Shown: positions 3,004 through 22,955 of the stretch, in pieces
How positions within the stretch are numbered: position 1 is the stretch's first letter
Layout: every line of letters begins with the position of its first letter
Source of the DNA: a virus
Lineage: Duplodnaviria; Heunggongvirae; Uroviricota; Caudoviricetes
Virus record (IMG/VR): IMGVR_UViG_2541047790_000011
Reading direction: 5' to 3' (one strand)
DNA length: 22,955 nucleotides
Notes under the pieces: generated by a model
Seen by the model: only the letters and a program-made list of their open reading frames with translations
What the model was told of the DNA's origin: nothing
The model's database searches: none
Translations under genes and position numbers: made by a program

Positions 3004-3303
3004 ATGAAACTTAAATATTCTGGCTTAACTGCCAGTGGCAAAACTCGCACTAAATTCATGCGCGGTGATATTTACCGCGACCAGTACGGCGGCACGGTAA
3101 TGATTAAGGGCGTGGAGGAACGGCGCGTAACCTACCGTCGTGAAGGCTACGAATATGATTGCGTGATGCCTGTTTATCAGTTCGATCGTGATTTTTCTCT
3201 GGTGCAGGCCGTACCGCGTAACGTGCCCACCAGCAGGGAGAAAGCACGCGCCAATATTCAGGAAATAAAAAAGATGCTTAACGTATTCAGGGGTAAAAAA
3301 TGA
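3004..3303 (+). CDS. Hypothetical protein (99 aa)
   Basis: The ORF's stop overlaps the primase start (ATGA at 3300-3303), indicating translational coupling. Confidence 0.6.
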   Translation: MKLKYSGLTASGKTRTKFMRGDIYRDQYGGTVMIKGVEERRVTYRREGYEYDCVMPVYQFDRDFSLVQAVPRNVPTSREKARANIQEIKKMLNVFRGKK

Positions 3304-5048
3304 AACTGGCACCGAACGTAAAAAAACAGCCACGCGGAATAAAACACAAAGACACAGAGGTAATTATTTTCGCGGGTAGTGATGCCTGGTCGCACGCGAA
3401 ACAATGGCAGGAGCAGGATGGCCCCGCATCCGGCGATAATGTGCCGCCTGTGTGGCTTGGGCCAAATCAGCTTGCCGAACTTGATGCACTGAAAATTGTT
3501 CCGGATGGAAAAAAACGCGTAAGGCTGTACCAGGCCGGAGAACTGGATTTGGTGGAGACCAAAAAGATTGGTCAGAAGCTGGCGGCGGCAGATATTCAGG
3601 ACGCAAATTTTTACCCCGAAGGAATGCACGTCCAGAAGTGTGAAAACTGGCGGCGCTATCTGAATGCTGAGCGTGAAAATATTGCCGCAGGGCTTACCAT
3701 GCCGGAGCAGAAAAATACGCAACTGGCACAAATGGCAGACAGTGAGCGCGCACAGATGCTTGCTGGTCGATTTGATGGCGTTTGTGTGCATCCGGAAAGT
3801 GAAATCGTTCACGTATGGCGCGGCGGGGTATGGTGTCCGGTCAGCACAATGGAACTTAGCCGCGAAATGGTGGCGATCTATTCAGAGCACAGGGCCACTT
3901 TCAGCAAGCGCGTAATCAATAACGCCGTGGAAGCGTTAAAAGTTATTGCCGAACCAATGGGCGAGCCGTCCGGTGATTTGCTGCCGTTTGCCAATGGTGC
4001 GCTTGACCTGAGAACAGGGGAATTTTCCTCTCACCAGCCGGATAACTGGATCACCACACACAACGGCATTGAGTACACGCCGCCAGTACCAGGTGAGAAT
4101 ATCCGCGACAACGCGCCAAACTTTCATAAATGGCTTGATCACGCTGCCGGAAAAGACCCGGGCAAGATGATGCGCATATGTGCCGCGCTATACATGATTA
4201 TGGCGAACCGGTACGACTGGCAGATGTTTATTGAGGCCACCGGAGACGGCGGGAGCGGCAAGAGCACTTTCACGCACATAGCCAGCCTTCTGGCAGGGAA
4301 ACAGAACACCGTAAGCGCTGAGATGACATCACTCGATGATGCTGGTGGGCGTGCGCAGGTTGTCGGAAGTCGGCTTATTGTCCTGGCAGACCAGCCGAAA
4401 TATACAGGCGAAGGCACGGGCATCAAGAAAATCACGGGCGGCGACCCTGTGGAGATTAACCCGAAATATGAAAAGCGATTCACGACCATAATCAGGGCTG
4501 TGGTACTGGCGACCAACAACAACCCGATGATATTCACGGAACGGGCCGGAGGCGTGTCACGTCGTCGCGTGATTTTCCAGTTCGACAACATTGTAAGGGA
4601 GGACGAAAAAGACAAGGATTTGCCGGAGAAGGTCGCGGCTGAAATCCCCGTAATTATACGCCGCTTGCTGGCTAATTTTGCCGACCCTGAAAAGGCACGG
4701 GCTTTACTCCTGGAACAGCGCGACGGTGATGAAGCACTGGCGATAAAGCAACAGACGGATCCGGTTATTGAGTTTTGCCAGTTCCTGAATTTTCTGGAGG
4801 AAGCACGCGGCCTGATGATGGGTGGCGGTGGCGATTCCGTGAAGTACACGACCAGAAACAGCCTTTACCGCGTCTATCTGGCGTTTATGGCATACGCAGG
4901 AAGAAGCAAGCCGCTAAACGTGGCTGAGTTCAGCAAGGCCATGAAGCCAGCGGCAAAAGTTTACGGACATGAATATATTACGCGGAAAGTTAAGGGAGTA
5001 ACGCAGACCAACGCAATTACAACGGATGATTGTGACGCGTTTTTATAA
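3300..5048 (+). CDS. Primase/helicase replication initiator (P4-alpha / D5-like, pri-rep type)
   Basis: 582 aa. Walker A 'EATGDGGSGKSTF' and Walker B-like 'RLIVLADQP' are present. The layout matches the C-terminal domain of phage/plasmid primases. An iteron array follows immediately 3' of the gene. Confidence 0.88.
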   Translation: MKLAPNVKKQPRGIKHKDTEVIIFAGSDAWSHAKQWQEQDGPASGDNVPPVWLGPNQLAELDALKIVPDGKKRVRLYQAGELDLVETKKIGQKLAAADIQDANFYPEGMHVQKCENWRRYLNAERENIAAGLTMPEQKNTQLAQMADSERAQMLAGRFDGVCVHPESEIVHVWRGGVWCPVSTMELSREMVAIYSEHRATFSKRVINNAVEALKVIAEPMGEPSGDLLPFANGALDLRTGEFSSHQPDNWITTHNGIEYTPPVPGENIRDNAPNFHKWLDHAAGKDPGKMMRICAALYMIMANRYDWQMFIEATGDGGSGKSTFTHIASLLAGKQNTVSAEMTSLDDAGGRAQVVGSRLIVLADQPKYTGEGTGIKKITGGDPVEINPKYEKRFTTIIRAVVLATNNNPMIFTERAGGVSRRRVIFQFDNIVREDEKDKDLPEKVAAEIPVIIRRLLANFADPEKARALLLEQRDGDEALAIKQQTDPVIEFCQFLNFLEEARGLMMGGGGDSVKYTTRNSLYRVYLAFMAYAGRSKPLNVAEFSKAMKPAAKVYGHEYITRKVKGVTQTNAITTDDCDAFL

Positions 5049-5062
5049 TTTTTTGTAAAAGC

Positions 5063-5288
5063 CCTCTACCCCATCTACCTGAATGAAATAAACGCATATT
5101 ATTCAACATGATAAGTGGGTAGAGGGATAGGTAGAAGGCTAATAAAACCCCTCTACCTCCTCTACCATGATTAAGGTCGTTTGTGAGGGGCGGGTAGAGG
5201 ATGGGTAGAGGGCCACGAAAAGCCCTCTACCCATCTGAAAGCCGCGCCATTACTGACCTGAAAGATGATTAGGTAGAAGAGGTAGAGG
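5063..5288. repeat. Replication-origin iterons: 11 copies of an 8-mer GGTAGAGG/CCTCTACC (8 exact, 3 one-off variants) in both orientations, flanking an AT-rich stretch
   Basis: Exact copies at 5063, 5118, 5150, 5159, 5193, 5204, 5224 and 5281. Variants at 5072 (CATCTACC), 5130 and 5272 (GGTAGAAG). The AT-rich segment is about 5080-5115. The position just 3' of the initiator gene matches SaPI/PICI origins. Confidence 0.75.
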
Positions 5289-7164: not shown

Positions 7165-8334
7165 ATGAAGAAATTAATCGAACTCCGCCAGCAAAAAAAC
7201 GCCCTGAAAAACCAGATGCGATCCCTGCTGGAAAAAGCCGACAGTGAAAACCGTAGTCTGAACGCTGAAGAAGGCAAACAGTTTGATGAACTGCGTGCAA
7301 AAGCTGATGCCCTCGACACAGAAATTTCCCGCCTCGAGTCTGTGGCTGATGAAGAACGCAGCAAGCCAGGAACGGGCATCCAGAAATTATCATCTGATGA
7401 ATTGCGTAACTACATCGTAACCGGAGATGTGCGATCACTGTCCACCAGCACTGACAGCGGCAGGGATGGCGGATATACCGTAATTCCTGAGCTTGATCGC
7501 GAAGTCATGCGCCAGCTACAGGATGACAGTGTTATGCGCGTGATCGCGACCGTGAAGACCGCAAAATCAAATGAGTTTCAGAAACTGGTTTCCACTGGCG
7601 GCGCAACTGTAGGACGAGGCACAGAAGGCAGCGCACGCAGTGAAACCAACACCCCGAAAATTGAACGCGTAACCATCAAGTTGAATCCGATCTACGCCTA
7701 CCCGAAAACCACGCAGGAAATCCTGGATTTTTCAGAGGTGGATATTCTGGGCTGGTTATCCTCCGAAATTGCCGACACGTTCGCCAGCACCGAAGAGGAT
7801 GATTTTGTTAATGGCGACGGTAACGGCAAGCCGAAAGGCTTCATGGCTTACACCCGTGCGGCGACCAGTGACAAAACCCGCGCTTTTGGCACCATTGAAA
7901 AAATAGTAGCGGCAAGTGGAACCGCCATTACAGCGGACGAACTGATCGACATTCTCTACAAGCTGAAAGCGAAATACCGCAAAAATGCCGTATGGGTGAT
8001 GAACTCGGGCACGGCAGGGACACTACAGAAGCTGAAAAATGAGAACGGCGATTATATCTGGCGCGACAGCCTTAAAGAAGGTGCGCCGGATATGTTGCTT
8101 GGTCGTCCTGTTTACTGCCTGGAGTCCATGCCGGACATCGGCGCAGGAAAAGCACCGCTAGCGGTTGGCGATTTCAGTCGTGGTTATTTCATCGTTGATC
8201 ATGTAACAGGGATTCGCACCCGACCGGACAACATTACTGAACCCGGATTCTACAAGGTCCACACGGATAAATATCTGGGCGGTGGTGTGGTGGATTCAAA
8301 CGCCATCAAAATTCTGGAAATGAAAGCTGGCTAG
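7165..8334 (+). CDS. Major capsid protein, HK97 family, with N-terminal coiled-coil scaffolding (delta) domain
   Basis: 389 aa. The N-terminus 'MKKLIELRQQKNALKNQMRSLLEKADSENRSLNAEEGKQFDELRAKADALDTEISRLESV' is delta-domain-like. The rest resembles HK97-family MCPs. A prohead protease and portal follow. Confidence 0.92.
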   Translation: MKKLIELRQQKNALKNQMRSLLEKADSENRSLNAEEGKQFDELRAKADALDTEISRLESVADEERSKPGTGIQKLSSDELRNYIVTGDVRSLSTSTDSGRDGGYTVIPELDREVMRQLQDDSVMRVIATVKTAKSNEFQKLVSTGGATVGRGTEGSARSETNTPKIERVTIKLNPIYAYPKTTQEILDFSEVDILGWLSSEIADTFASTEEDDFVNGDGNGKPKGFMAYTRAATSDKTRAFGTIEKIVAASGTAITADELIDILYKLKAKYRKNAVWVMNSGTAGTLQKLKNENGDYIWRDSLKEGAPDMLLGRPVYCLESMPDIGAGKAPLAVGDFSRGYFIVDHVTGIRTRPDNITEPGFYKVHTDKYLGGGVVDSNAIKILEMKAG

Positions 8335-8346
8335 TCATGAGTAAGG

Positions 8347-8368
8347 AGGAGGCTGCGGCCTCCTTTTT
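8347..8368 (+). terminator. Intrinsic terminator/attenuator between the capsid and protease genes
   Basis: Stem AGGAGGC (8347-8353) pairs with GCCTCCT (8358-8364), loop TGCG, then a T-run to 8368. It sits 13 nt after the MCP stop. Confidence 0.55.
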
Positions 8369-8388
8369 CAGCTTTATGGAGTACACCG

Positions 8389-8949
8389 ATGAAAAACACC
8401 GATTTTGAAATCCGCACATCTGAACTGACCGCCAGCAATAAAAAGCTGGTGGGGTATGCCGTTCGCTGGAACAGCCTTTCAGAAATTATCTGGGACGAAT
8501 TCCGCGAACAGTTCACGCCGGGGGCTTTTGCTGACTATCTGGCGACGGGTAATGATGTGCGCTGCCTGTATGAGCATGACTATACCCAACTGCTGGGGCG
8601 CACCAAATCCGGCACTCTGGTACTGACTGAGGATAACACCGGGTTACGTTTTGAACTGACACCGCCGGATACCCAGCTTGGAAAAGATGTGCTTACGCTG
8701 GTGGAGCGTGGCGACATTACAGGAATGAGCTTTGGTTTTCGCGCATTATGCGAGGAGTGGAGTATCGCGCAAAAACCGTATCTGCGTACCGTAACCGCCG
8801 CTGAACTCCGTGAAATCACAATAACGTCGATGCCTGCTTATCCAGAATCTGGCGTGGAGATTGCCCACCGTTCGTTGTTTGCACAGCACCCTGAATTACG
8901 TCCGACAGGAAATAATCTTCATCGCTGGTCTGAGCTGGCGGGGTTGTGA
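8389..8949 (+). CDS. Prohead (head maturation) serine protease, HK97 family
   Basis: 186 aa. 'LVGYAVRWNSLSE...FTPGAF...DVRCLYEHD...LLGRTKSGTL.L.ED..GL.F....PDT..G.D.L.LV.RGDI.GMSFGF' is the pattern of HK97 gp4-type (S78/U35) proteases. Confidence 0.9.
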   Translation: MKNTDFEIRTSELTASNKKLVGYAVRWNSLSEIIWDEFREQFTPGAFADYLATGNDVRCLYEHDYTQLLGRTKSGTLVLTEDNTGLRFELTPPDTQLGKDVLTLVERGDITGMSFGFRALCEEWSIAQKPYLRTVTAAELREITITSMPAYPESGVEIAHRSLFAQHPELRPTGNNLHRWSELAGL

Positions 8950-10165: not shown

Positions 10166-10460
10166 AGCCAAAATTACACCTGATGAAGTCAGGGCACATC
10201 TTCGACTTGATGATGATTTATCCGGTGAAGGCGAACTTCTGAAAATGTATACCGATGCGGCGCTGGAAGCCTGCCAGAAGCATATCGGGAAACGTTTTGA
10301 AGACGGGCTGGAATTTACCCCGGCAATGCGTGTTGGTTGCCTGATGTACATCGCTTTCCTGTACGAGAACCGGGAAGCGGTTTCACCAGTGGAGCACTCG
10401 GAACTGCCTATGGCTATTTCTGCGCTCTGGTCAGTTTATCGTGACGTAGGGGTGTACTGA
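10158..10460 (+). CDS. Head-tail connector / adaptor (gp6-like DNA-packaging protein)
   Basis: 100 aa from ATG 10158, overlapping the portal stop. 'ITPDEVRAHLRLDDD...ELLKMYTDAALEACQKHIG' is the typical N-terminus of gp6-like head-tail connector proteins. Confidence 0.8.
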   Translation: MSEAKITPDEVRAHLRLDDDLSGEGELLKMYTDAALEACQKHIGKRFEDGLEFTPAMRVGCLMYIAFLYENREAVSPVEHSELPMAISALWSVYRDVGVY

Positions 10461-10900
10461 TGCCGTGGCAACCATTAAGGCGATGCACTGAGCCTGGCTG
10501 TAATAAGCGCGTGAAGTCCGGCAAGTGTGAAGAGCACAGGCGGGCTGCATGGCGTGCAGAGGATGCCAGACGGGGACACCGCCGCGCGCGCGGGTATTCC
10601 CGACAGTGGGACAAATACCGCGCCCTGTACCTGAGCAAAAACCCGTTATGCGTGAGTTGTCTGGCTAAGGGGATTTATACGCCAGCTCTTGTGGTGGATC
10701 ACATCATTCCCATCAATGGCGGCGGTGATGTTCTCTTCTGGCCTGAGTGGAACCACCAGGCATTGTGCCAGACGTGCCACAACCGTAAGACGACACGGGA
10801 AGATCCCGCCACGAAAGCGAACCGTAAGGCGGGCATGTATCGCGATCAGGAAGAACGGGCGGCACACCGTAACGACTGGATGTATGGCGATGATGACTGA
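10460..10900 (+). CDS. HNH endonuclease (cos-packaging accessory nuclease)
   Basis: 146 aa. The motif 'LCVSCLAKG....A.VVDHIIPI.....F...WNHQALCQTCHNRKT' carries HNH residues plus Cys pairs. It lies just upstream of terS, as in HK97-like cos phages. Confidence 0.9.
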   Translation: MPWQPLRRCTEPGCNKRVKSGKCEEHRRAAWRAEDARRGHRRARGYSRQWDKYRALYLSKNPLCVSCLAKGIYTPALVVDHIIPINGGGDVLFWPEWNHQALCQTCHNRKTTREDPATKANRKAGMYRDQEERAAHRNDWMYGDDD

Positions 10901-11069
10901 ACAGGAGCAAAACAGGCTGATACGTGGGTTGATAAGGCAGCGTGACACATGGAAGACACAGGAGACAGGGCACAAAGCCAACAGGACAGGGCGCACAAAA
11001 CGCACCACAGCGAAGCGATTAACCGACCGTGACCGCGAGGTCATGGAATGTTTTCGCAATCGCTGGTGA
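10884..11069 (+). CDS. Possible small basic protein (about 58-61 aa)
   Basis: This is the distal part of ORF 10689-11069, beginning at the ATG cluster 10884/10890/10893 that overlaps the HNH stop. Arg/Lys/Thr-rich. No family recognised; it may be non-coding. Confidence 0.3.
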   Translation: MAMMTEQEQNRLIRGLIRQRDTWKTQETGHKANRTGRTKRTTAKRLTDRDREVMECFRNRW

Positions 11070-11188
11070 GGCCGTCAGAGGGGGTGGGGGTGGTTTTCAG
11101 GACGAAACCGTCCCTGCCGGACACCGACCGCCTCCCCAAATTTTTATGCACGGGAATTTTTTGAAAAATAATCTGACGAAAAATAAGC
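11070..11188. other. Candidate cos (cohesive-end) region
   Basis: 119-bp non-coding gap between the HNH module and terS. It has a G-run (11078-11093, GAGGGGGTGGGGGTGG) and a C-rich tract (11124-11137). This is the canonical cos position in HNH-dependent HK97-like packaging systems. Confidence 0.4.
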
Positions 11189-11545
11189 ATGGCAAGACCA
11201 CCGAAAGCCCCCGCCTACCTGGATGATATCGCCGTGAAGCAGTGGCGGGAAAAATCGCGGCAGCTTGCGGAACGGGGAGACCTGACCCCCGCCGACTGGA
11301 GCAATCTGGAACTGTATTGCGTCAACTACTCCATTTACCGGAAAGCCGTTGCAGACCTTGCGGCGCGCGGGTTCAGCATTGTTAACAGTCAGGGCGGCGA
11401 GAGCAGAAACCCCGCATTAAGCGCAAAATCCGACGCTGAAAGAGTGATGATAAAAATGGCCTCCTTGCTCGGTTTTGACCCGATAAGCCGCCGTAAAAAT
11501 CCACCGGAAACAGAAGAAGAGGACGAGCTTGACCGCCTGGAATAA
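11189..11545 (+). CDS. terS: Terminase small subunit, P27 family
   Basis: 118 aa. 'PPKAPAYLDD.A...W......L...G.LT.AD...LE.YC..Y..YR.A...L...G......G....NPA' matches the P27-family TerS pattern. It overlaps the terL start. Confidence 0.88.
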   Translation: MARPPKAPAYLDDIAVKQWREKSRQLAERGDLTPADWSNLELYCVNYSIYRKAVADLAARGFSIVNSQGGESRNPALSAKSDAERVMIKMASLLGFDPISRRKNPPETEEEDELDRLE

Positions 11546-13190
11546 GTACGCAGAAGACGTAAAAACGGGCAAAATTCCGGCCTGTAAACGGCTGAAACAG
11601 GCCGTTAAACGGTACTTTTCGGACCTTGAAAGCCCCCTTTACACGTTCGATCGTGAGGTTGTGGAGCGGTTTATTGCCTTTTCCAGGGTGTGCGCGCACG
11701 TAAAAGGGCCGATGCGTGGCAGACCCATTGAGCTGGAGCCGTGGCAGCAGTTCGCCTTTGCGTGCATCCTCGGCTTTAAGGTTAAGGCCACCGGACGGCG
11801 CAAATACACGAGCGCCTTTATCGAAGTGCCGCGCAAAAATGCGAAATCCACGACCGCCGCGATTCTGGCTAACTGGTTTCTGATTATGGAGAACGGTCAG
11901 CAGGATATCTACACCGCAGCGGTGAGCCGTGACCAGGCGCGGATCGTCTTTGATGATGCGCGTCAGATGTGCCTTTTATCCCGACCGTTACGCAGGCGGG
12001 TGAATATTCAGGCGCATAAGGTGATACACCCGAAAACCAACAGCCTGTTAAAGCCACTGGCAGCAAAAGCGGCAACCATTGAGGGGACAAACCCGAGTCT
12101 TGCCATTGTGGATGAATATCACCTGCACCCAGACAACGGGGTTTATTCCGCACTTGATATGGGGATGGGCGCACGTCCCGAAGGGCTGTTATTTGCCATT
12201 ACCACATCGGGCAGTAACGTCGTTTCAGCCTGTAAGCAGCACTATGATTATTGCTGCCAGATCCTGGACGGCGAAGAGGTCAACGATTCAATTTTTGTAC
12301 TGATTTACGAACTGGACGACGAAAACGAGGTTGATGATCCGGCGATGTGGATAAAGGCTAACCCTAACATCGATGTTTCCGTCGATCGTGAAAAACTGGC
12401 CTCAACCATCCAGAAAGCGCGGGGTATTCCGTCGCAATGGGTGGAAATGCTCACCAAGCGATTCAATATCTGGTGTCAGGGGGCTACGCCGTGGATGGGT
12501 AACGGTGCATGGGCGGAGTGTGCCGGAACGTTCGCGGAGGCGGATTTATACGGGCAGGAGTGCTACGCGGGGCTGGACTTATCATCAACCAGCGATATTT
12601 CCAGCGTGTGCTATGCCTTCCCGGTCGGTAAAAAGATTATGCTGGTTTCCCGTCACTATCTGCCGGAATTTCAGCTACAGAATCCCGCCAATAAAAACCG
12701 CGCCATCTATCGCCAGTGGGTAAAGGCGGGCTGGATACGCACAACACCGGGTGACTGCATTGATTATGACCGTATCCGTGATGACATCATGGCGGATGCA
12801 GAGAATTTCAATATCAGGCTGGTGGGCTTCGATACATGGAACGCCACGCACCTGAGGACGCAGTTACAGGGCGCAGGATTTGAGGTGGAGCCGTTCCCGC
12901 AAACCTACCTCAGATTCAGTCCGGCGGCGAAATCGTTCGAAGTTTTTGTTAACCGGAAGGTGATTGTGCATCGTGGTGATCCGGTGCTGGCCTGGTCAAT
13001 GAGTAATGTTGTGATGCAGAGTGACGCGAACGCCAATATCAAGCCGAACAAGAAAAAATCATCCAACAAGATAGACCCGAGCGTTGCGGCGCTGATGGCG
13101 TTTGGCACATTCCAGGCAGAGCACGAGGACTTTGCATTCGATATGAGCGACAGCCACAAAGAGCGGCTTGCGGCGTTTGATGGGGTATGA
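11529..13190 (+). CDS. terL: Terminase large subunit
   Basis: 553 aa. ATPase motifs 'VPRKNAKSTTAA' (Walker A-like) and 'LAIVDEYH' (Walker B) are present, followed by a C-terminal nuclease-domain-sized region. Confidence 0.93.
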   Translation: MTAWNKYAEDVKTGKIPACKRLKQAVKRYFSDLESPLYTFDREVVERFIAFSRVCAHVKGPMRGRPIELEPWQQFAFACILGFKVKATGRRKYTSAFIEVPRKNAKSTTAAILANWFLIMENGQQDIYTAAVSRDQARIVFDDARQMCLLSRPLRRRVNIQAHKVIHPKTNSLLKPLAAKAATIEGTNPSLAIVDEYHLHPDNGVYSALDMGMGARPEGLLFAITTSGSNVVSACKQHYDYCCQILDGEEVNDSIFVLIYELDDENEVDDPAMWIKANPNIDVSVDREKLASTIQKARGIPSQWVEMLTKRFNIWCQGATPWMGNGAWAECAGTFAEADLYGQECYAGLDLSSTSDISSVCYAFPVGKKIMLVSRHYLPEFQLQNPANKNRAIYRQWVKAGWIRTTPGDCIDYDRIRDDIMADAENFNIRLVGFDTWNATHLRTQLQGAGFEVEPFPQTYLRFSPAAKSFEVFVNRKVIVHRGDPVLAWSMSNVVMQSDANANIKPNKKKSSNKIDPSVAALMAFGTFQAEHEDFAFDMSDSHKERLAAFDGV

Positions 13191-13628: not shown

Positions 13629-14176
13629 AAAAAGACGGTTTAACCATCCATTAAAAATCGACGTGATTTTGTGCTTTCCGTATGAGGTGGCCAGCGTCAT
13701 TTTTTAGTGAGAAATTCTGGTCAGGGGCGTTGGCTGAATGGTTATTTTATCGTGCCCATGCACAGGGAGGGGGCGGGTAAAATCTCTGGAGGTGATGCCT
13801 GTCAGGACCGCCGCCTGACCCTTCCTCACATCGCCGCAGGTTCGAAAACTTTTTTTGTGTCAGGTGCGCACGGAATTGATAGATAAAACCTATATTAAAA
13901 AATCACGGAAGCCGTGCCATTGCTGGAGCAGTCAAAAATTCCACATCTCACGGCAGGCAAAAAAAGCGAATTTTGGGCCAGTTGAGGATAAAAAAGGGCT
14001 CACTAGTTTTGCACATCCTGGTATCGGGGTCGTCAGCCTCCCGCCAGTAACTAGGTAACTAATCACGCTGGTGGGCATGATGCCGATGCCGGGATCTCGG
14101 TATCGGTTTATCTGTGATCATCCACCAGCTTGATGACAGATAACAGGGAGTCATAACGGTTAAAGCGTGTTGATCT

Positions 14177-14233
14177 TTGTTCGTGGTTGTTCGATATTGT
14201 TCGTAAAGCGGTGTAGTTAATGGTGTAGTTAAT
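14177..14233 (+). repeat. Three exact TTGTTCG repeats at 10-bp phasing, followed by a tandem 12-mer GGTGTAGTTAAT x2
   Basis: TTGTTCG at 14177, 14187 and 14197. GGTGTAGTTAAT at 14210-14221 and 14222-14233. Confidence 0.4.
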
Positions 14234-14406
14234 TTCGCTGTTTTTGACGAGCTTATCATTTGCAACGCAATGAAAAACAAAGACTAATTAACAAAATGCT
14301 ATAAATGATAGTTATCTATCATGTGGAGTAGATTGGTCAGGCAAATAAGCTCTTGTCAGCGGCAGGGCGTTCTGCCGATAACCGTAACCGAAGATGATAA
14401 CTGACA

Positions 14407-17537: not shown

Positions 17538-17830
17538 GAAGAATTTTTATGATAATTATTGTTTGCTCATACTGTAAACAAGTTGTGCAGTATATCTACA
17601 TCTGATGCGCCGCGCGATAAATAAGCCGCAATCCGTGAGATAAATGGACACAGTGCGGCTTTTCAGATACGGAAAAGGAATTACAGATTATCAGTCGTAA
17701 GCAACCCACGCTTACTGGCAAGGATGGTTTACAATGCTGAAAGCGCCTCCCGGCAATACCGCCAATCATCACTCAAACAGAAAAAATTATTGCTCATGGT
17801 TCACTCCGGTAATGAATCGTTTTACAGGCG

Positions 17831-18424
17831 TCATTCGGTCATGGAAAGATTGCTGATTTCGGTAATCCCGGCAATTTCCTCGCTGACGGATTTCAGTTCG
17901 ATTTCCAGCTTGGTGCGTTCGTTGACCAGCGCAGCTACGGTCTTACGGCGGTCTGCCAGTGACGGAAGGTTGTCATTGCCCCACGCCACGCTTTTATCCT
18001 TTTTGAGCGCTTCGGTCAGGCGGGTGGCGACCACATCCGGGAAGAAAAAGCATAACTTACGCATAACCGTCATCCCGACATCAGCCAGGGGGACATTCCC
18101 GCTCAGTCCCACCAGACGGAACAGACCAGAAATATCACCATTCTCATTTTCCAGATTACCCCAGCGTTCGGCGTTCCCTTCACTGCCGGAACCGTTGCAA
18201 AGAGCAAGCTTGAATGACTGATATTCTTCCTGCCCGAATCGCTCAATATATTCAGGAATAAAGGAACAGTAATCATTAAGCGATAATGGCATATCCTGTA
18301 ATGTGGTTATTTCACTGTTAATCTCTCCAATTCGGCGGGAGAGCTTTTCTTTCTGCTCATTCAGGGAGGCAAGATTATTTTTAACGGCGTTCAGTGCTTC
18401 GATAAGGGAAATAACAGGTTTCAT
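17831..18424 (-). CDS. Hypothetical coiled-coil protein (197 aa), possibly scaffold-like
   Basis: ATG 18424 is preceded by GGAG and lies 2 nt after the upstream gene's stop. Heptad-like N- and C-terminal segments are present ('LNAVKNNLASLNEQKEKLSRRIGEINSEITTLQ', 'RRKTVAALVNERTKLEIELKSVSEEIAG'). The ORF-track start at 18493 is an over-extension. Confidence 0.7.
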   Translation of the reverse strand: MKPVISLIEALNAVKNNLASLNEQKEKLSRRIGEINSEITTLQDMPLSLNDYCSFIPEYIERFGQEEYQSFKLALCNGSGSEGNAERWGNLENENGDISGLFRLVGLSGNVPLADVGMTVMRKLCFFFPDVVATRLTEALKKDKSVAWGNDNLPSLADRRKTVAALVNERTKLEIELKSVSEEIAGITEISNLSMTE

Positions 18425-18425
18425 T

Positions 18426-19040
18426 TTAATAACTCCAGATGAAAGGCGTGGTGAGGGCGAGCGCTTCAGAATAGGAGACATTGCAGGCTGCACTTACGTC
18501 CTTTATTAAAAGGTGCTGTGCTGCCCTCTGACTGTCTGCTATGCCGTCAAACTCTGAAAAATGAACGTGTGATTCATTGTGATAAAAGCAAACCGGGTAA
18601 CAGCTTTCCATAAATTCTACCTGCGCCAGTCCCTTTACTGCTGGAGGCTGTGAGCCGAGAAAACCGATATGCTGAAGATACCAGGCACCGATTCCTGCCG
18701 GGTTGTTCGCTTCGCCGGGTCTATAAAATGCCGCAGACACTTTCCTGTAACGCCCTGCGCGTACCAGTCCCAGCAGGGTTTCATCAGGCTTAACCAGCGC
18801 GAAAAGCCTGCCGTTTTTACTTATCAGCCCAGTTGTTTCACCATAAGATGGGCTGTTGCTGGCCGGATGTCCAATACACAGCGGCGCACCATAACCCGCA
18901 CGATGATAGCCGTTATAGGCTGCCGCCATGTTGTCGATATCCTCGTCGGAAAAGGCAATTTCCTGCCCAGCCATCGTGATATGCGTTCCCGCCCGGAATA
19001 TCTCGATAGTTTTCCAGTTGCCAATATCGATATCTTTCAT
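18426..19040 (-). CDS. Phage head maturation protease / scaffold N-domain-like protein (P2 gpO / Mu I-like pattern); function tentative
   Basis: 204 aa. The pattern 'W..IEIFRAGTH....G..I.F...DID.MAAAYN......APL.IGHP....P.YG....L...G.LFA.V.P.....LV..G.YRKVSAAFY.P......G.WYL.HIGFLG..PPAVKGL' resembles phage prohead protease/scaffold families, with candidate His in GHP and Ser in KVSA. This is recalled from memory, not searched. Confidence 0.55.
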   Translation of the reverse strand: MKDIDIGNWKTIEIFRAGTHITMAGQEIAFSDEDIDNMAAAYNGYHRAGYGAPLCIGHPASNSPSYGETTGLISKNGRLFALVKPDETLLGLVRAGRYRKVSAAFYRPGEANNPAGIGAWYLQHIGFLGSQPPAVKGLAQVEFMESCYPVCFYHNESHVHFSEFDGIADSQRAAQHLLIKDVSAACNVSYSEALALTTPFIWSY

Positions 19041-19041
19041 T

Positions 19042-19569
19042 TTAAATTACCCCATATTTCGCATCGCGCTGTATTTTATTTTTCTTGCGTTCGGCGGCTA
19101 TAATCTGATAAATACACTGAATGGAACGCTTGTATTTTTTTGATAGTTCAAAAATAGAGATACCCTGATAAAAATCAGCCAGTATTTTTGAGTTCCTGTC
19201 GAAAGTGTTTTTTGATGCGCCCATAGGGATATATATATTCCCCCTGAAAAATGTATTCCTGAGACATTCAGTGATGGCAGGAGAAAGTTTTTCGGCTTGC
19301 GAACAGAGGTAAGGTATGGTTCCTAATGTCTGCTCAATAGATTCAGTCAGCTCCTGTAGGAAGCGAACTGCCTTAGGTGCTCTTTCTCGGTGTTCAGCCA
19401 TATACCCCTGGCAGCCACCAAGGTTATCAGAGATACCCAACACAATATGATTAGCCGCACTGCAGGACTGTTGCCGTGAATACCCTTTGTTGATCAGAAA
19501 CACTTCTATAGCATCGCCCATTGCCCCCAAAGTATCGGATGAAGCATACAATCCTTCTCTTGTAATCAT
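19042..19569 (-). CDS. Mor/C-family transcriptional activator-like protein
   Basis: 175 aa from ATG 19569, with GAGGT 6 nt upstream. 'IVLGISDNLGGCQGYM' and 'GNIYIPMG' resemble Mu Mor 'VVAICKHLGGGQVYIPRG'. The C-terminal HTH 'ILADFYQGISIFELSKKYKRSIQCIYQIIAAERK' resembles Mor 'IWNDFNGRNVSELTTRYGVTFNTVYKAIRR'. Confidence 0.7.
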   Translation of the reverse strand: MITREGLYASSDTLGAMGDAIEVFLINKGYSRQQSCSAANHIVLGISDNLGGCQGYMAEHRERAPKAVRFLQELTESIEQTLGTIPYLCSQAEKLSPAITECLRNTFFRGNIYIPMGASKNTFDRNSKILADFYQGISIFELSKKYKRSIQCIYQIIAAERKKNKIQRDAKYGVI

Positions 19570-19601
19570 AATCACACCTCGTCAACGATAAATATGCGCA
19601 C

Positions 19602-19624
19602 ATAAAGCCTTTATAAAGCTTTAT
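19602..19624. promoter_or_regulatory. Overlapping dyad and direct repeats (ATAAAGC x2, palindrome CTTTATAAAG) upstream of the Mor-like operon
   Basis: ATAAAGC at 19602 and 19613. The 10-bp palindrome is at 19609-19618. The inverted copy GCTTTAT is at 19618-19624. Confidence 0.3.
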
Positions 19625-19770
19625 GAGGTGCATTACTGGTGTCATTCCATGATGCACACCACCAACAACCAAAAACGCCTTACAGAGCATTTCAATGTGT
19701 GTTATTAATGTGGATTAAGAATATGGTTTTGGGGCGAGAATGTTTTTTAATGTACTTTAGATATGACGAA

Positions 19771-19788
19771 GCCCCTCAAAGGAGGGGC
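19771..19788 (-). terminator. GC-rich hairpin just downstream of the 92-aa gene
   Basis: Stem GCCCCTC/GAGGGGC, loop AAAG. The U-tract on the minus strand is weak, so termination efficiency is uncertain. Confidence 0.4.
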
Positions 19789-19809
19789 GAGGCGGAAAAC
19801 TATTTATAA

Positions 19810-20088
19810 CTATTCCTTACTCTCCTGATCAAGACGATTACCTATCAGGTTAATCATTGCCATTGCATCAGATAGCAGGATACTGTTAACAAGTGCTAAG
19901 GGCGTCTGTGTTGATTTATCATCAACGGCAACAGAAAGTTCATCATTCAGGCGACGAACGGCCTCAAGACGGCTAAAGGCGGCTTCCCATATTTCTGTAC
20001 TCGGGGCATCAGCATTAACAAACAAAACATCGTAAGACGTTCCCTGAGACTCATGAGGACAGGCTATGAAATTAGCAGTAGCTTTCAT
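19810..20088 (-). CDS. Hypothetical protein (92 aa)
   Basis: The ORF's start overlaps the stop of the upstream gene (ATGA at 20085-20088). No family confidently recognised. Confidence 0.65.
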   Translation of the reverse strand: MKATANFIACPHESQGTSYDVLFVNADAPSTEIWEAAFSRLEAVRRLNDELSVAVDDKSTQTPLALVNSILLSDAMAMINLIGNRLDQESKE

Positions 20089-20564
20089 TTTGCAGTCCTC
20101 CGGTTAATTATAAATTTATTATAAATTTCATAACTTGCGGCATTCAGTCCTGGACTGTATTTATCTGCCAGTGAACAGGCAATGAATTCTTCAATCGATT
20201 TAGTCAGTATATCAAGCTCAGTTGTTCCGGAATAACGCAAGGCCACTCGAAATAATTCTCGGCAGTATGTTTTTTTATGGTCAATATTTTGTAACTGCTG
20301 TTGCGGTATATCACGACGTTCAAATATATTAACAAATGCATTAAGCGGGAAGCTATGATTTGCCTGCGGATATTGCTCATAGGAAAACACCACAGTATTA
20401 CCGTTGCATTCTTTAACAATTGCATTCATACCGCTGTTAATTTCAATATACCACTCTCCTATACATGGAGGATTGATAGCTTCGCTCTGTGCCTTGATTA
20501 AAGGTAAGCGGATAGTATCCACTTGGTTTGTTGCAACTGAATCGTTAGACTTGTCGTTAGCCAT
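20085..20564 (-). CDS. Hypothetical protein (159 aa)
   Basis: ATG 20564 is preceded by AGGA at an 8-nt spacing. The ORF-track start at 20582 lacks an SD. No family recognised. Confidence 0.65.
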   Translation of the reverse strand: MANDKSNDSVATNQVDTIRLPLIKAQSEAINPPCIGEWYIEINSGMNAIVKECNGNTVVFSYEQYPQANHSFPLNAFVNIFERRDIPQQQLQNIDHKKTYCRELFRVALRYSGTTELDILTKSIEEFIACSLADKYSPGLNAASYEIYNKFIINRRTAK

Positions 20565-20660
20565 GACTGTTATCCTACACATAACGGTTTTTGGTTAGGC
20601 CATAGCAAGTGCTCGCAACATTTGTTATGGCCGTTTCTTTGGCCCTTTCCCTGTGATAAG

Positions 20661-20701
20661 GTATAGACCTAACAAGTAAACACTAAGCCATAGGTCTATA
20701 C
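20661..20701. promoter_or_regulatory. 11-bp perfect inverted repeat GTATAGACCTA ... TAGGTCTATAC (19-bp spacer) in the divergent promoter region
   Basis: Arms at 20661-20671 and 20691-20701; the right arm abuts ATG 20702. A second 7-bp inverted repeat, GGCCATA/TATGGCC, is at 20598-20604 / 20626-20632. Confidence 0.45.
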
Positions 20702-20893
20702 ATGTCAACTATCTTGAGAGATAAAAGCCAAAAAGGGGCAGGGAAAGCCCCCATGTTTAACGTTAGAATATCGCCAGATTTGAAAGAACAGTTTGAAATA
20801 CAAGCAAAAAAAGAAGGTGTTAGCTTGGGAAACTGGCTCAAGGAACTTGGCAGGGCGGAACTAAAACGTAAGGGGATCGAGCCGAAAGGGTGA
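20702..20893 (+). CDS. Arc/CopG-like ribbon-helix-helix DNA-binding protein (63 aa; more likely 46 aa from ATG 20753)
   Basis: 'MFNVRISPDLKEQFEIQAKKEGVSLGNWLKELGRAEL' matches the Arc/Mnt/CopG beta-alpha-alpha pattern (compare Arc 'MPQFNLRWPREVLDLVRKVAEENGRSVNSEIYQRV'). AGGGA lies 8 nt before ATG 20753. No SD precedes 20702. Confidence 0.7.
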   Translation: MSTILRDKSQKGAGKAPMFNVRISPDLKEQFEIQAKKEGVSLGNWLKELGRAELKRKGIEPKG

Positions 20894-20919
20894 TGTTTTA
20901 GTCTCCCTGTGTTTGATTA

Positions 20920-21757
20920 AAAGCGAAATCGCTTTCACATTTAAAGTTCAAGATAGCCAATGCCATCACCAAAGCGGACAGCGCTGTCCGCTTTTCATCA
21001 GTAAAAACCACATATTTACGCCAAAACGCTCAACGTTGAGCGCTACGTACCCCGGCAAAAGCGCAAGCGTCTGCGCTTTTGGTAACAAGCAATCAGCATT
21101 TAAATGCGGACAACGTTGACCGTTTTGAGGAATCAATGTCGGCTGAGCAAAAACGACAACGTTGTCGTTTTTAAAACGGCAAGCGCTTACCGTTTCAGAT
21201 TATCGAGGCGGTAAGAGTTTACCGTTTGGTGTCAATTATGTTCAATAAGCGAAAACGTTTTCGCATTTTCTCACCTAACGCGGCAAACCTTCTTTGTCCT
21301 AGATGGAAAAACGACAGCGCTGTCGTTTCTAATCCGGGGTTCCAAACCGCTCAGCGCTGAGCGGTTCTGTGGCTTTCTTACAATCCAAATCCGCCAACGT
21401 TGGCAGATTTGCAAATATCACATATGATTGATGGTCCCGAATCACAAATGTCCCAGCGCGGGGATATTTCAAGTAGTTCAATCATTTCATGCGCTGGCAG
21501 TCATCTCCAAAACTGCGAACGCCTGCCCTTTCAGTACAGTTTGGTAATATATATTGGTAAGCTTTACTTGTAGAAATATAAAACTCCAAAAGCGCCAGCG
21601 CTGGCGCTTTGTAAGGCCAGCAATATCATTCCCAGCGCTGGAATACTAAAAGGCGGATTCCTGCATCTTAATTTGAGATGGAATCTCATGGCAATCCAGT
21701 GTTAACGTAGGGTTTTAGCCAGTACTCACGACTTGAATATGCCAGCGCTGGCACATT
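20920..21757. repeat. ORF-free array of at least 16 sequence-variable palindromes with conserved centres AGCGCT or AACGTT and A-tract/T-tract flanks; class unknown
   Basis: Read directly. Perfect palindromes: 20971-20994 (24 bp), 21027-21042 (16), 21149-21172 (24), 21249-21264 (16), 21309-21328 (20), 21345-21366 (22), 21589-21610 (22), 21740-21753 (14). Near-perfect units: 20920, 21056, 21103, 21174, 21209, 21386, 21446, 21632. Confidence 0.85.
21554..21582 (+). promoter_or_regulatory. Candidate sigma70 promoter inside the palindrome array
   Basis: TTGGTA (21554-21559), a 17-bp spacer, TATAAA (21577-21582), in the only strongly AT-rich stretch of the array. It would start transcription at about the 21589 palindrome. 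Confidence 0.3.
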
Positions 21758-21975
21758 TGAAGTCTGGTAACATCAATAATCTAATGACACCTGATGTAAT
21801 TTTGAACCCTGAACTGGAATCAACCCCAAATTTAATGGCAACAGCTATCAGCCAGATTACTGATGAACGTGACCTGCTGAACCAATTACTTGACCAAGCA
21901 CAGATGGCCGATGCATTCGAGCAATTTTCCCGAACGGTTCGGACTTCTAAACTGGCTTTTGTGAAGGAAAACAAG
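21739..21975 (+). pseudogene. 5' fragment (about 79 codons) of an unknown gene, truncated by IS insertion
   Basis: The ORF from ATG 21739 (or TTG 21733) runs straight into the IS terminal inverted repeat at 21976. Its last residues and its stop are IS-derived. Confidence 0.5.
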
Positions 21976-22955
21976 GGCTTTGTTGAATAAATCAGATTTC
22001 GGGTAAGTCTCCCCCGTAGCGGGTTGTGTTTTCAGGCAATACGCACGCTTTCAGGCATACCTGCTTTCGTCATTTTGTTCAGCGCTCGTACCAGGGCCAT
22101 AGCCTCTGCAACCTGACCATCGTAGTCACGCAGTGTCAGTGAACCTCCGAACAGCTGTTTTACCCGGTACATCGCCGTTTCCGCTATCGAGCGACGGTTA
22201 TAATCTGTTGTCCATTTCCACCGCGCATTACTCCCGGTCAGCCGCTGATTCGCAACAGCACGGTTACGGTCTGCATATTCACCGGGCCAGTAACCCGCGC
22301 CTTTTCGGGGCGGGATAAGCGCGCTGATTTTCTTACGCCGCAGTTCATCGTGACAGAGCCGGGTGTCGTAAGCGCCGTCTGCCGATGCTGCCCTGATTTT
22401 TCTGTGAGTCTGCCGGATAAGACCCGGGAAGGCTTCTGAGTCCGTCACATTGTTCAGCGACAGGTCTGCACAGATGATTTCATGTGTTTTGCTGTCAACT
22501 GCCAGATGCAACTTTCGCCATATACGACGGCGTTCTTTGCCGTGTTTTTTGACTTTCCATTCGCCTTCACCAAAGACCTTCAGCCCGGTGGAATCAATCA
22601 CCAGATGCGCGATTTCACCTCGGGTGAACGTTTTGAAACTGACATTAACCGACTTTGCGCGCTTGCTGACACTGGTGTAATCCGGGCAGCGCAACGGAAC
22701 ATTCATCAGTGTAAAAATGGAATCAATAAAACCCTGTGCAGCCCGCAGGGTCAACCTGAACACGCGTTTAATGACCAGAACGGTGGTGATGGCGAGATCA
22801 GAATAGCGCTGAGGTCTTCCCCGTGATGAAGGCGTTGCCGACTCATACCAGGCCTGAATAGCTTCATCATCCAGCCAGAAAGTTATGGAGCCACGGTTGA
22901 TGAGGGCTTTATTGTAGGTGGGCCAGTTGGTGATTTTGAACTTTTGCTTTGCCAC
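21976..22955 (-). mobile_element. IS903/IS102-family insertion sequence (IS5 family), partial; it runs off the window end
   Basis: The terminal inverted repeat GGCTTTGTTGAATAAATC is at 21976-21993. The internal sequence and transposase are recognisably IS903-like. The far inverted repeat, about 80 bp beyond the window, is not visible. Confidence 0.92.
22032..22955 (-). CDS. IS903/IS102 transposase (DDE, 307 aa, GTG start at the window edge)
   Basis: The translation 'MAKQKFKITNWPTYNKALINRGSITFWLDDEAIQAWYESATPSSRGRPQRYSDLAITTVL...' is near-identical, from memory, to the IS903 transposase. Confidence 0.95.
   Translation of the reverse strand: MAKQKFKITNWPTYNKALINRGSITFWLDDEAIQAWYESATPSSRGRPQRYSDLAITTVLVIKRVFRLTLRAAQGFIDSIFTLMNVPLRCPDYTSVSKRAKSVNVSFKTFTRGEIAHLVIDSTGLKVFGEGEWKVKKHGKERRRIWRKLHLAVDSKTHEIICADLSLNNVTDSEAFPGLIRQTHRKIRAASADGAYDTRLCHDELRRKKISALIPPRKGAGYWPGEYADRNRAVANQRLTGSNARWKWTTDYNRRSIAETAMYRVKQLFGGSLTLRDYDGQVAEAMALVRALNKMTKAGMPESVRIA

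Follow-up and report, generated by a model that had tools for sequence, protein, structure and literature searches.

Phage-inducible chromosomal islands of the capsid-forming kind (cf-PICIs) are islands of 10-18 kb that encode an integrase and a primase/replication module (bioRxiv 10.1101/2022.09.08.507074 and 10.1101/2025.02.11.637232). The elements themselves, their own HNH-TerS-TerL packaging module and their cohesive ends of the cos (cohesive end site) type have already been published. Such ends were reported for KpCIDSM30104, the cf-PICI of Klebsiella pneumoniae DSM 30104 (10.1101/2025.02.11.637232), and the view that packaging is specific for the satellite's terminase rests on published experiments on other cf-PICIs (bioRxiv 10.1101/2022.09.08.507074). 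Neither preprint gives cos coordinates or a cos sequence, and the journal version of the first may map the site. Among phages, the gene order HNH-cos-terS is described in a review summarising Kala 2014 (PMC13595911), and HK97 has a 10-nt 3' overhang (PMC9410871). Here we analyse the 22,955-nt virus record IMGVR_UViG_2541047790_000011 (the whole stretch is called the window), which contains a cf-PICI of about 14.3 kb, and in particular the 119-base gap upstream of its small terminase gene, terS. We conclude that the cos of this island very probably lies in the gap, and it is hardly less likely that the gap is the element's own cos, of the HNH-dependent HK97 type with 3' overhangs. The gap is an ordinary, expected part of a known element, and the existence of a cos is not surprising; public data from relatives appear to place the cut to within a few bases. 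The published elements EcCIEDL933, KpCIDSM30104 and EcCIGN02175 are of the same type and have the same set of packaging genes, but the island belongs to another lineage, with about 73-78% DNA identity in this region.

The features that bear on this conclusion are listed below. Gene coordinates are those of the annotation of the identical SaT040 chromosome by the Prokaryotic Genome Annotation Pipeline (PGAP), supplemented by Pfam and PHROG scans.

10460-10900, + strand: HNH endonuclease gene (Pfam HNH, E 3.2e-9; PGAP)
10884-11069, + strand: conserved open reading frame (ORF) of 61 aa, last gene before cos (PGAP; phrog_3173)
11070-11188: non-coding gap, 119 bases, very probably holding the whole cos region
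11078-11093, + strand: G-block GAGGGGGTGGGGGTGG, last G 31 nt before the predicted bottom-strand nick; G at 11084 and 11087-11090 invariant
11094-11122: spacer, mean pairwise identity 0.53 and 0.45, no covariation
11123-11125, + strand: invariant ACC (columns A50, C51 and C52 of alignment A2), with the predicted bottom-strand nick between 11124 and 11125
11125-11134, + strand: predicted cohesive end CGACCGCCTC, 10 nt, 3'-protruding, placed by alignment
11135, + strand: predicted first base of the packaged left end (top-strand nick between 11134 and 11135)
11138-11171, + strand: third conserved block, AAATTTTTATGCACGGG..TTTTTT..AAAATAA; candidate TerS site (cosB-like) AAATTTTTATGCACGGGAATTTTTTGAAAAATAA, the most conserved block, at +4 to +37 from the predicted left end
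11189-11545, + strand: terS, P27 family (Pfam Terminase_4, E 1.3e-23; phrog_83)
11529-13190, + strand: terL, HK97 type (Pfam TerL_ATPase and TerL_nuclease)

A preliminary description of this DNA had singled out the gap as the sole sizeable non-coding stretch among the morphogenesis genes and had proposed that the island's own packaging signal lies there. The gap is indeed the only intergenic region above 60 nt in the packaging operon, the next in the capsid-to-terL block measuring 54 nt (8335-8388). The G-run GAGGGGGTGGGGGTGG (11078-11093) and the C-rich tract CCGACCGCCTCCCC (11124-11137) are present as described, and the AT-rich remainder up to terS (11138-11188) has 25% G+C. The gap was also said to separate the HNH module from terS; this holds for the gene order, but the gene directly bordering the gap is the 61-aa ORF, not HNH. 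This ORF matches phrog_3173 (unknown function) over its full length (E 4.8e-29). Its C-terminal ...ECFRNR(W) is kept in many Enterobacterales relatives, whereas two Pasteurella elements, Pmp7 and Pmp8, lack the ORF; its product may be a packaging accessory protein. The proposal of a packaging signal belonging to the island is supported by four lines of evidence: the gene order, the homology of TerL and HNH, a conserved element in the gap, and the ends of two relatives.

The succession HNH, gap, terS, terL, likened in the same description to HK97-type cos phages, recurs in the records of HK97, HK022, D3 and phiC31. HK97 and HK022 have their cos between the gp74 HNH gene at the right end and terS at the left end, and D3 and phiC31 also have HNH at the right end; we take the HNH gene of the island to mark the right end of its packaged genome. 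Island TerL shares 27% identity with HK97 gp2 (E 2e-48), and HK97 TerL (6Z6D) is its sole sequence match in the PDB; island HNH is 36% identical to HK97 gp74 (E 5e-17). The small subunits, in contrast, are unrelated in sequence: island TerS belongs to P27/Terminase_4 and showed no similarity to HK97 gp1 (BLASTP E 2.4), which has no Terminase_4 match and no Pfam family. A TerS resembling gp1 does not define this type of cos, however, since phiC31 and the Cluster E mycobacteriophages combine a P27-family TerS with the same cos layout. HK97 also differs in being a 40-kb phage, whereas the island is a 14-kb satellite making T=4 heads. A cos of the lambda type (12-nt 5' overhang, gpNu1/gpA) finds no counterpart here: TerL matches PF03354, PF20441 and HK97 TerL only, and the contig ends described next show a deficit, not a duplication.

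The position of the cut is taken from linear assemblies of related elements. The metagenome contig IMGVR_UViG_3300022664_000095 (IMG/VR; 15,518 nt) is colinear over its full length, in the same permutation, with vB_KppS-Ant (LR881103, 16.5 kb; Ant below). The contig begins CTCAAATTTTTACGCACGG..., 60 nt before terS (first bases CTCAAATTTTT; blastn puts contig nucleotide 3 on window 11137), and ends ...CAGGACAAAACCCAAGCCGCAAGGCAC (final bases ...GCAAGGCAC); by alignment, its start corresponds to window 11135 and its end to window 11124. Integrated relatives read GGCAC, CACCCGCCCC and CTCAAATTTTT in direct succession. Because they carry CACCCGCCCC between the two contig ends, the contig is short of exactly 10 nt, a deficit that fits 10-nt 3' overhangs trimmed in end repair. 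A circular or concatemeric template would have given an overlap and a 5' overhang a duplication. The end at 11134/11135 had been derived from the G-block spacing (see below) before the left end of the contig was read, and the two agree.

The second relative with informative ends is Ant, which was sequenced with Nextera XT from a preparation of phage propagated on K. pneumoniae DSM 30104 and assembled with SPAdes (PMC8006926). The Ant record ends ...GGGGTGGGGGAGGTTTTCAGGAC and begins ACGAAAAGG..ATG, the ATG being that of terS; compared with the chromosomal copy in K. pneumoniae ATCC 13883 (L279), it is short of 69 nt (21+10+38) at the same point. We take ATCC 13883 to be the same type strain as DSM 30104. 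The 69 extra bases of the chromosomal copy put the ends of the linear Ant molecule inside the homologous gap, and with tagmentation a few tens of terminal bases should be missing on either side. L144, a contig of the E. coli type, stops one base past 11124, at the position matching window 11125. Low-resolution support comes from PQ569648 (Klebsiella phage P12620-1), the cf-PICI part of which breaks around the gap with a loss of about 127 nt. Apparent ends at L103, L360 and L263 were rejected as storage-chunk boundaries rather than contig ends, and the IMG/VR loci found through TerS are mostly proviruses from isolate genomes.

Both LR881103 and PQ569648 (L084, 88000-106503), although public as 'phage' records, are really cf-PICIs, in whole or in part. 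The latter is a chimeric 106-kb assembly in which the last ~15.9 kb are a cf-PICI starting within the terS start codon, and Ant was described in its own paper as a filamentous single-stranded DNA phage (PMC8006926).

Transferred to the island, the ends of the relatives predict nicks between 11124 and 11125 on the bottom strand and between 11134 and 11135 on the top strand, leaving a 10-nt 3' overhang. We regard these exact positions as probable, with clearly less confidence than the presence of cos in the gap; the limits are a possible 4-nt shift of register at ACCGACCG and the transfer from relatives. The C-rich tract would then not merely lie near cos, but include the predicted cohesive end (11125-11134). 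We infer the nick positions by alignment, and likewise the polarity of the overhang and the pairing of proteins with blocks. It is less likely, but deserves serious consideration, that cos lies in the gap with its nicks shifted by a few bases or with an overhang of another length, for instance a bottom-strand nick between 11128 and 11129 and an overhang of 9 nt. The window has ACCGACCG where the relatives have a single ACC; HK97 and Quink are nicked after the GAC of GAC|CGC, a motif found in the window at 11126-11131; and the overhang of Cluster E phages is 9 nt, not 10. Yet alignment from the side of the invariant AAATTTTT returns the 10-mer at 11125-11134, the resulting G-block spacing of 31 nt equals that of the relative with observed ends, and the end of the E. 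coli-type contig L144 falls on the equivalent of 11125.

Sequence conservation in the gap was assessed with relatives that had been found through the TerS protein, not through DNA, in a collection with one genome per species. The 80 loci come from Enterobacterales (Klebsiella, Xenorhabdus, Photorhabdus, Proteus, Serratia, Yersinia, Erwinia and others), Aeromonas, Orbales and Pasteurellales. The conserved element is present in 71 of the 75 unique assessable upstream regions; a core-motif filter removed 11 of the 75, seven of which are variants or extraction artefacts and four of which truly lack the element. Among the 35 sequences left after de-replication at 90%, the mean pairwise identity is 0.80 for the G-block (11078-11093), 0.76 for the C-rich block (about 11123-11137), 0.87 for AAATTTTTATGCACGGG and 0.78 for the block from the T-tract to GAAAATAA, compared with 0.78, 0.84 and 0.46 for terS codon positions 1, 2 and 3. 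The three blocks of the gap thus match codon positions 1 and 2 in conservation, and the variable parts of the gap range from 0.42 to 0.53 (intervening spacer, 0.45; stretch directly before the ATG, 0.42). Invariant columns correspond to window positions 11084, 11087-90, 11105, 11123-25, 11140-45, 11148, 11153, 11157-61 and 11170, and are centred on an A followed by TTTTT at 11140-11145. In the spacer, TTTTCAGGAC is kept only among Enterobacteriaceae, and the other bases are variable. The G-run on its own is not significant (GGGGNGGGGG is present in one copy in the window, compared with 0.21 expected, and one or more copies turn up in 18 of 100 shuffles); it rises above chance because it is conserved. 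A search for repeats inside the gap returned short matches at chance level only.

Single-base indels among the relatives (alignment A2) exclude a coding explanation of this conservation, and for the same reason an ORF running across the gap (11029-11226) was rejected as a gene. Database calls of a 'long TerS' of 165 aa (proteins P0005-P0063) carry a 47-aa N-terminal extension that would read across the cos site. They too were rejected: in the window, a TGA at 11174-11176 closes the terS frame, and the extension shows no conservation. We regard the entries as probable start-codon miscalls.

Some relatives depart from the common layout. In Xenorhabdus hominickii NZ_NJAI01000005 (L322), the G-block upstream of terS has grown to five tandem GGGGTA units, which could form a G-quadruplex. 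Pasteurellaceae bacterium Macca has at least eight TerS relatives in one genome (L350-L357), and several of these loci, as well as the Lonepinella copy (L349), have no cos element upstream of terS; the packaging module may be arranged differently there.

The same alignments bear on the view that the gap is mainly a transcriptional or RNA element (terminator, attenuator, terS-terL promoter or structured RNA) and that cos lies elsewhere, which we consider very improbable. The G-run can pair with the C-run, a T-run follows, the single-sequence RNA fold reaches -39.9 kcal/mol, and there is one terminator-like match in the gap (11072-11087). However, the fold is no better than those of shuffled sequences (z = -1.66 for RNA and -1.41 for DNA), and RNAalifold gave -2.17 kcal/mol for 33 diverse sequences, with a covariation term of -0.09. 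An Rfam scan of the gap at E values up to 1 returned nothing, no promoter-like site was seen on the + strand, and the terminator-like matches are within shuffle expectation. Conservation resides in the primary sequence, not in pairing. With a conserved sequence but no conserved fold, what is conserved is the primary double-stranded sequence, as expected for protein recognition sites; an RNA or transcriptional role would also leave the linear assembly ends in the gap unexplained.

Of the conserved blocks of this putative cos, the one at 11138-11171 is assigned to TerS because it is the best-conserved part of the gap. The minimal TerS site of HK97 spans +15 to +29 (CTAACCCGATTTTTT) and is recognised through a GC pair and the shape of an A-tract (PMC11331095). 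With 11135 as +1, the T-tract of the island occupies +23 to +28, compared with +24 to +30 in HK97 (numbering checked on the HK97 record), and is preceded by an invariant G..CGG. The conserved AT-rich part would therefore lie where HK97 TerS binds its own cos, and from position and conservation we propose it as a candidate TerS site. There is no solved structure related to island TerS, and an AlphaFold model built from a 26-sequence alignment was too poor for a fold search (pLDDT, the per-residue confidence score, 54.9).

The G-block has counterparts well beyond the cf-PICIs. When the gap served as a short BLAST query against 50,697 phage records, 11074-11095 unexpectedly proved identical at 22 of 22 positions to a site in ~150 Cluster E mycobacteriophages (L398, KF279417 1529-1550), 38 nt from their right end. 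Part of this identity falls on positions that are variable within the cf-PICI family and is thus due to chance; the conserved part is the G-block. Cluster E genomes end in 9-nt 3' extensions, CGCTTGTCA (PMC4472888). The distance from G-block to overhang in this and other systems is as follows:

HK97 and HK022: 32 nt, overhang CGCCGCCAAA
D3: 30 nt, overhang CGCGCCCCCA (last 10 nt of the record, assumed)
phiC31: 32 nt, overhang CCCGGCCCCA (first 10 nt of the record, assumed)
Quink (Cluster E): 32 nt, overhang CGCTTGTCA
cf-PICI contig IMGVR_UViG_3300022664_000095: 31 nt, CACCCGCCCC (the missing 10 nt)
window: 31 nt, predicted overhang CGACCGCCTC

HK97 and HK022 thus resemble the island not only in their TerL and HNH, but also in having a 10-nt C-rich 3' overhang (predicted in the island) and a G-block 32 nt before it, compared with 31 nt here; the overhangs themselves differ (CGCCGCCAAA in HK97, CGACCGCCTC predicted in the island). 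In phiC31, D3 and the Cluster E phages, such as Quink and Mindy, a G-block (GAGGGGGCGGGGCGG, GGGGTGGGGCGGG or GAGGGGGTGGGGGTGG) precedes a 9-10 nt overhang by 30-32 nt. D3 also shares GGACAC/CG with the window, and phiC31 and Quink share the P27-family TerS. On the other hand, these are full-size phages with hosts of different phyla, their downstream (TerS-side) sequences are unrelated to that of the island, and Pfam found no HNH in the last Quink genes examined. The spacing criterion was derived in this analysis from record ends, as there is no published one, and this comparative observation is the modestly new part of our results. The proposed fixed distance is about 31-32 bp, and the bottom-strand nick reads G^GT in five of the six lineages compared.

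A tentative generalisation, which we would put at slightly below even, is that the G-block is a phylum-spanning sub-element of HNH-dependent 3'-cos sites that serves the TerL-HNH pair, and that the downstream block differs from one TerS family to another. If true, cos specificity would be modular, with a 'cutting' half held in common and a 'recognition' half that is private, and this modularity would explain HK97-type cutting in a satellite that is invisible to the helper terminase. TerL holds about 25 bp of DNA up to the portal in the termination complex of HK97 (PMC10359639), so that a site 31-46 bp upstream of the nick would already be at or inside the portal at the final cut. The G-block could position TerL-HNH or could be needed for the terminating cut.

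Other satellites are packaged by different means. SaPIbov5 and SaPIbov4 (phi12/phiSLT cos), P4 (P2 cos) and PICIs of the EcCICFT073 type (Rpp-redirected TerS) resemble the island in having cos-delimited satellite units and small capsids (PMC5052747; bioRxiv 10.1101/2022.09.08.507074). They differ in using the terminase of the helper, whose cos is copied or whose TerS is retargeted, whereas the cos of the island lies inside its own hnh-terS-terL module and co-varies with its own TerS lineage. That the island itself is packaged by a headful (pac) mechanism, or through a helper's cos and terminase, so that the gap is not the satellite's own signal, is most unlikely even though many classical PICIs and SaPIs use headful packaging or a helper cos (bioRxiv 10.1101/2022.09.08.507074; PMC5052747): the island encodes its own TerS, TerL and HNH; terminases of the HK97 type that are associated with HNH are cos enzymes (PMC13595911, PMC9410871); the assemblies of related cf-PICIs have unique, not permuted ends; the cos element accompanies the satellite terS across four bacterial orders; gap matches above 36 nt in the 50,697 phage records are limited to the Ant record and a 1.6-kb fragment in which HNH, gap and terS are arranged likewise; and the prototype cf-PICI showed exclusive self-packaging in published experiments.

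Several observations weigh against the assignment of the gap as an HK97-type cos cut at the predicted positions. The DNA likeness to the HK97 cos is marginal, with 20 of 1000 shuffles aligning as well in local alignment, and that of the family consensus is not significant (568 of 1000 shuffles); we have therefore built the argument on architecture and spacing. The relatives that supply the termini are only ~75-78% identical to the island at the DNA level, and neither is from its close E. coli lineage. Reading the deficit of the contig IMGVR_UViG_3300022664_000095 as a trimmed 3' overhang is an interpretation that depends on how its library was made. A scan of metagenome contigs for ends at the G-block gave 70 matches, none with an informative end, and no E. 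coli-type IMG/VR contig starts at the predicted left end. Owing to the local ACCG ACCG duplication, the register of the bottom-strand nick may be ambiguous by 4 nt, and the overhangs of D3 and phiC31 were placed by assumption. Finally, TerS is unlike HK97 TerS and its model unusable, which leaves position and conservation as the basis for the TerS site.

If the gap is the island's cos, packaging may proceed as follows. After excision and replication, island TerS would bind 11138-11171, just past the cut, and bring in the HK97-type TerL and the gp74-like HNH nuclease of the island. The bottom strand would be nicked between 11124 and 11125 and the top strand, 10 bp away, between 11134 and 11135, which would create the 10-nt 3' cohesive end CGACCGCCTC. 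Packaging would then run rightwards from 11135 through terS, terL, the junction of the attachment (att) sites, int, the replication genes, the head genes and HNH, and would stop at the next cos, giving one unit of ~14.3 kb per small capsid. The G-block (11078-11093), three helical turns upstream of the bottom-strand nick, would be part of the signal; its probable role is to position the nuclease complex or to permit the terminating cut.

The remainder of the element agrees with its classification as a cf-PICI. Pfam and PHROG matches and the PGAP gene list identified an integrase and a primase/replication module in an island of the size given above, which sits between cspD/yljB on one side and clpS on the other (RefSeq annotation, Pfam/PHROG scans); the same sources revealed no tail or lysis genes in the island. 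The 1.2 kb around the gap are 100% identical to chromosomes of E. coli sequence type 131, for example SaT040, and a relative of the island occurs in 515 of 5,426 complete E. coli genomes. Imperfect direct repeats of 73 nt, 74% identical and 14,256 nt apart, flank the island; GGTGTAGTTAATGGTGTAGTTAATTT and repeats of TGTTCG occur in them, and they probably mark its bounding att sites. The features outside the packaging module are:

1-1239: integrase
3300-5048: primase
7165-8334: major capsid protein
8389-8949: prohead protease
between the prohead protease and HNH in the gene list: portal and head-tail adaptor
14168-14240: attR-like repeat, with its partner 16-88 nt upstream of the window start (L002 1513-1585)
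885, 1954, 4341, 5676, 8445, 8697, 9931, 12818 and 14067, + strand: nine Chi sites in the island
3227, 7442 and 14122, - strand: three Chi sites in the island

Directly after the primase gene (5057-5232), there are three copies of AAAAGCCCTCTACCC, one with two mismatches, at spacings of 87 and 74 nt, which look like the iterons of a replication origin. Chi sites (GCTGGTGG) number 15 in the window, compared with 0.79 expected from shuffles. With the terminase genes as the left end, the + strand orientation acts on RecBCD entering from the right cos end, an arrangement described for Chi-rich lambdoid phages (PMC12315714). The flanking clpA also has + strand Chi sites, so that a leading-strand effect or codon usage may be the cause instead. 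The stretch 17800-22955, on the far side of clpA and a tRNA-Ser gene, carries genes for a Mor-family activator, hypothetical proteins, a HicB antitoxin and an IS5 transposase (annotation of the identical SaT040 region), and may be the remnant of a second mobile element.

cf-PICIs spread between species by means of their own DNA-filled heads and borrowed tails, and cos is the cis signal that decides which DNA is packaged. A prediction of cos at the level of single bases allows minimal cos plasmids to be designed for cf-PICI-based DNA delivery, makes it testable why the helper and satellite terminases disregard each other's DNA, and aids the reorientation and annotation of cf-PICIs in viromes. 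The G-block spacing shared by HK97, D3, phiC31, Cluster E and the cf-PICIs would, moreover, provide a simple rule for predicting 3'-cos ends.

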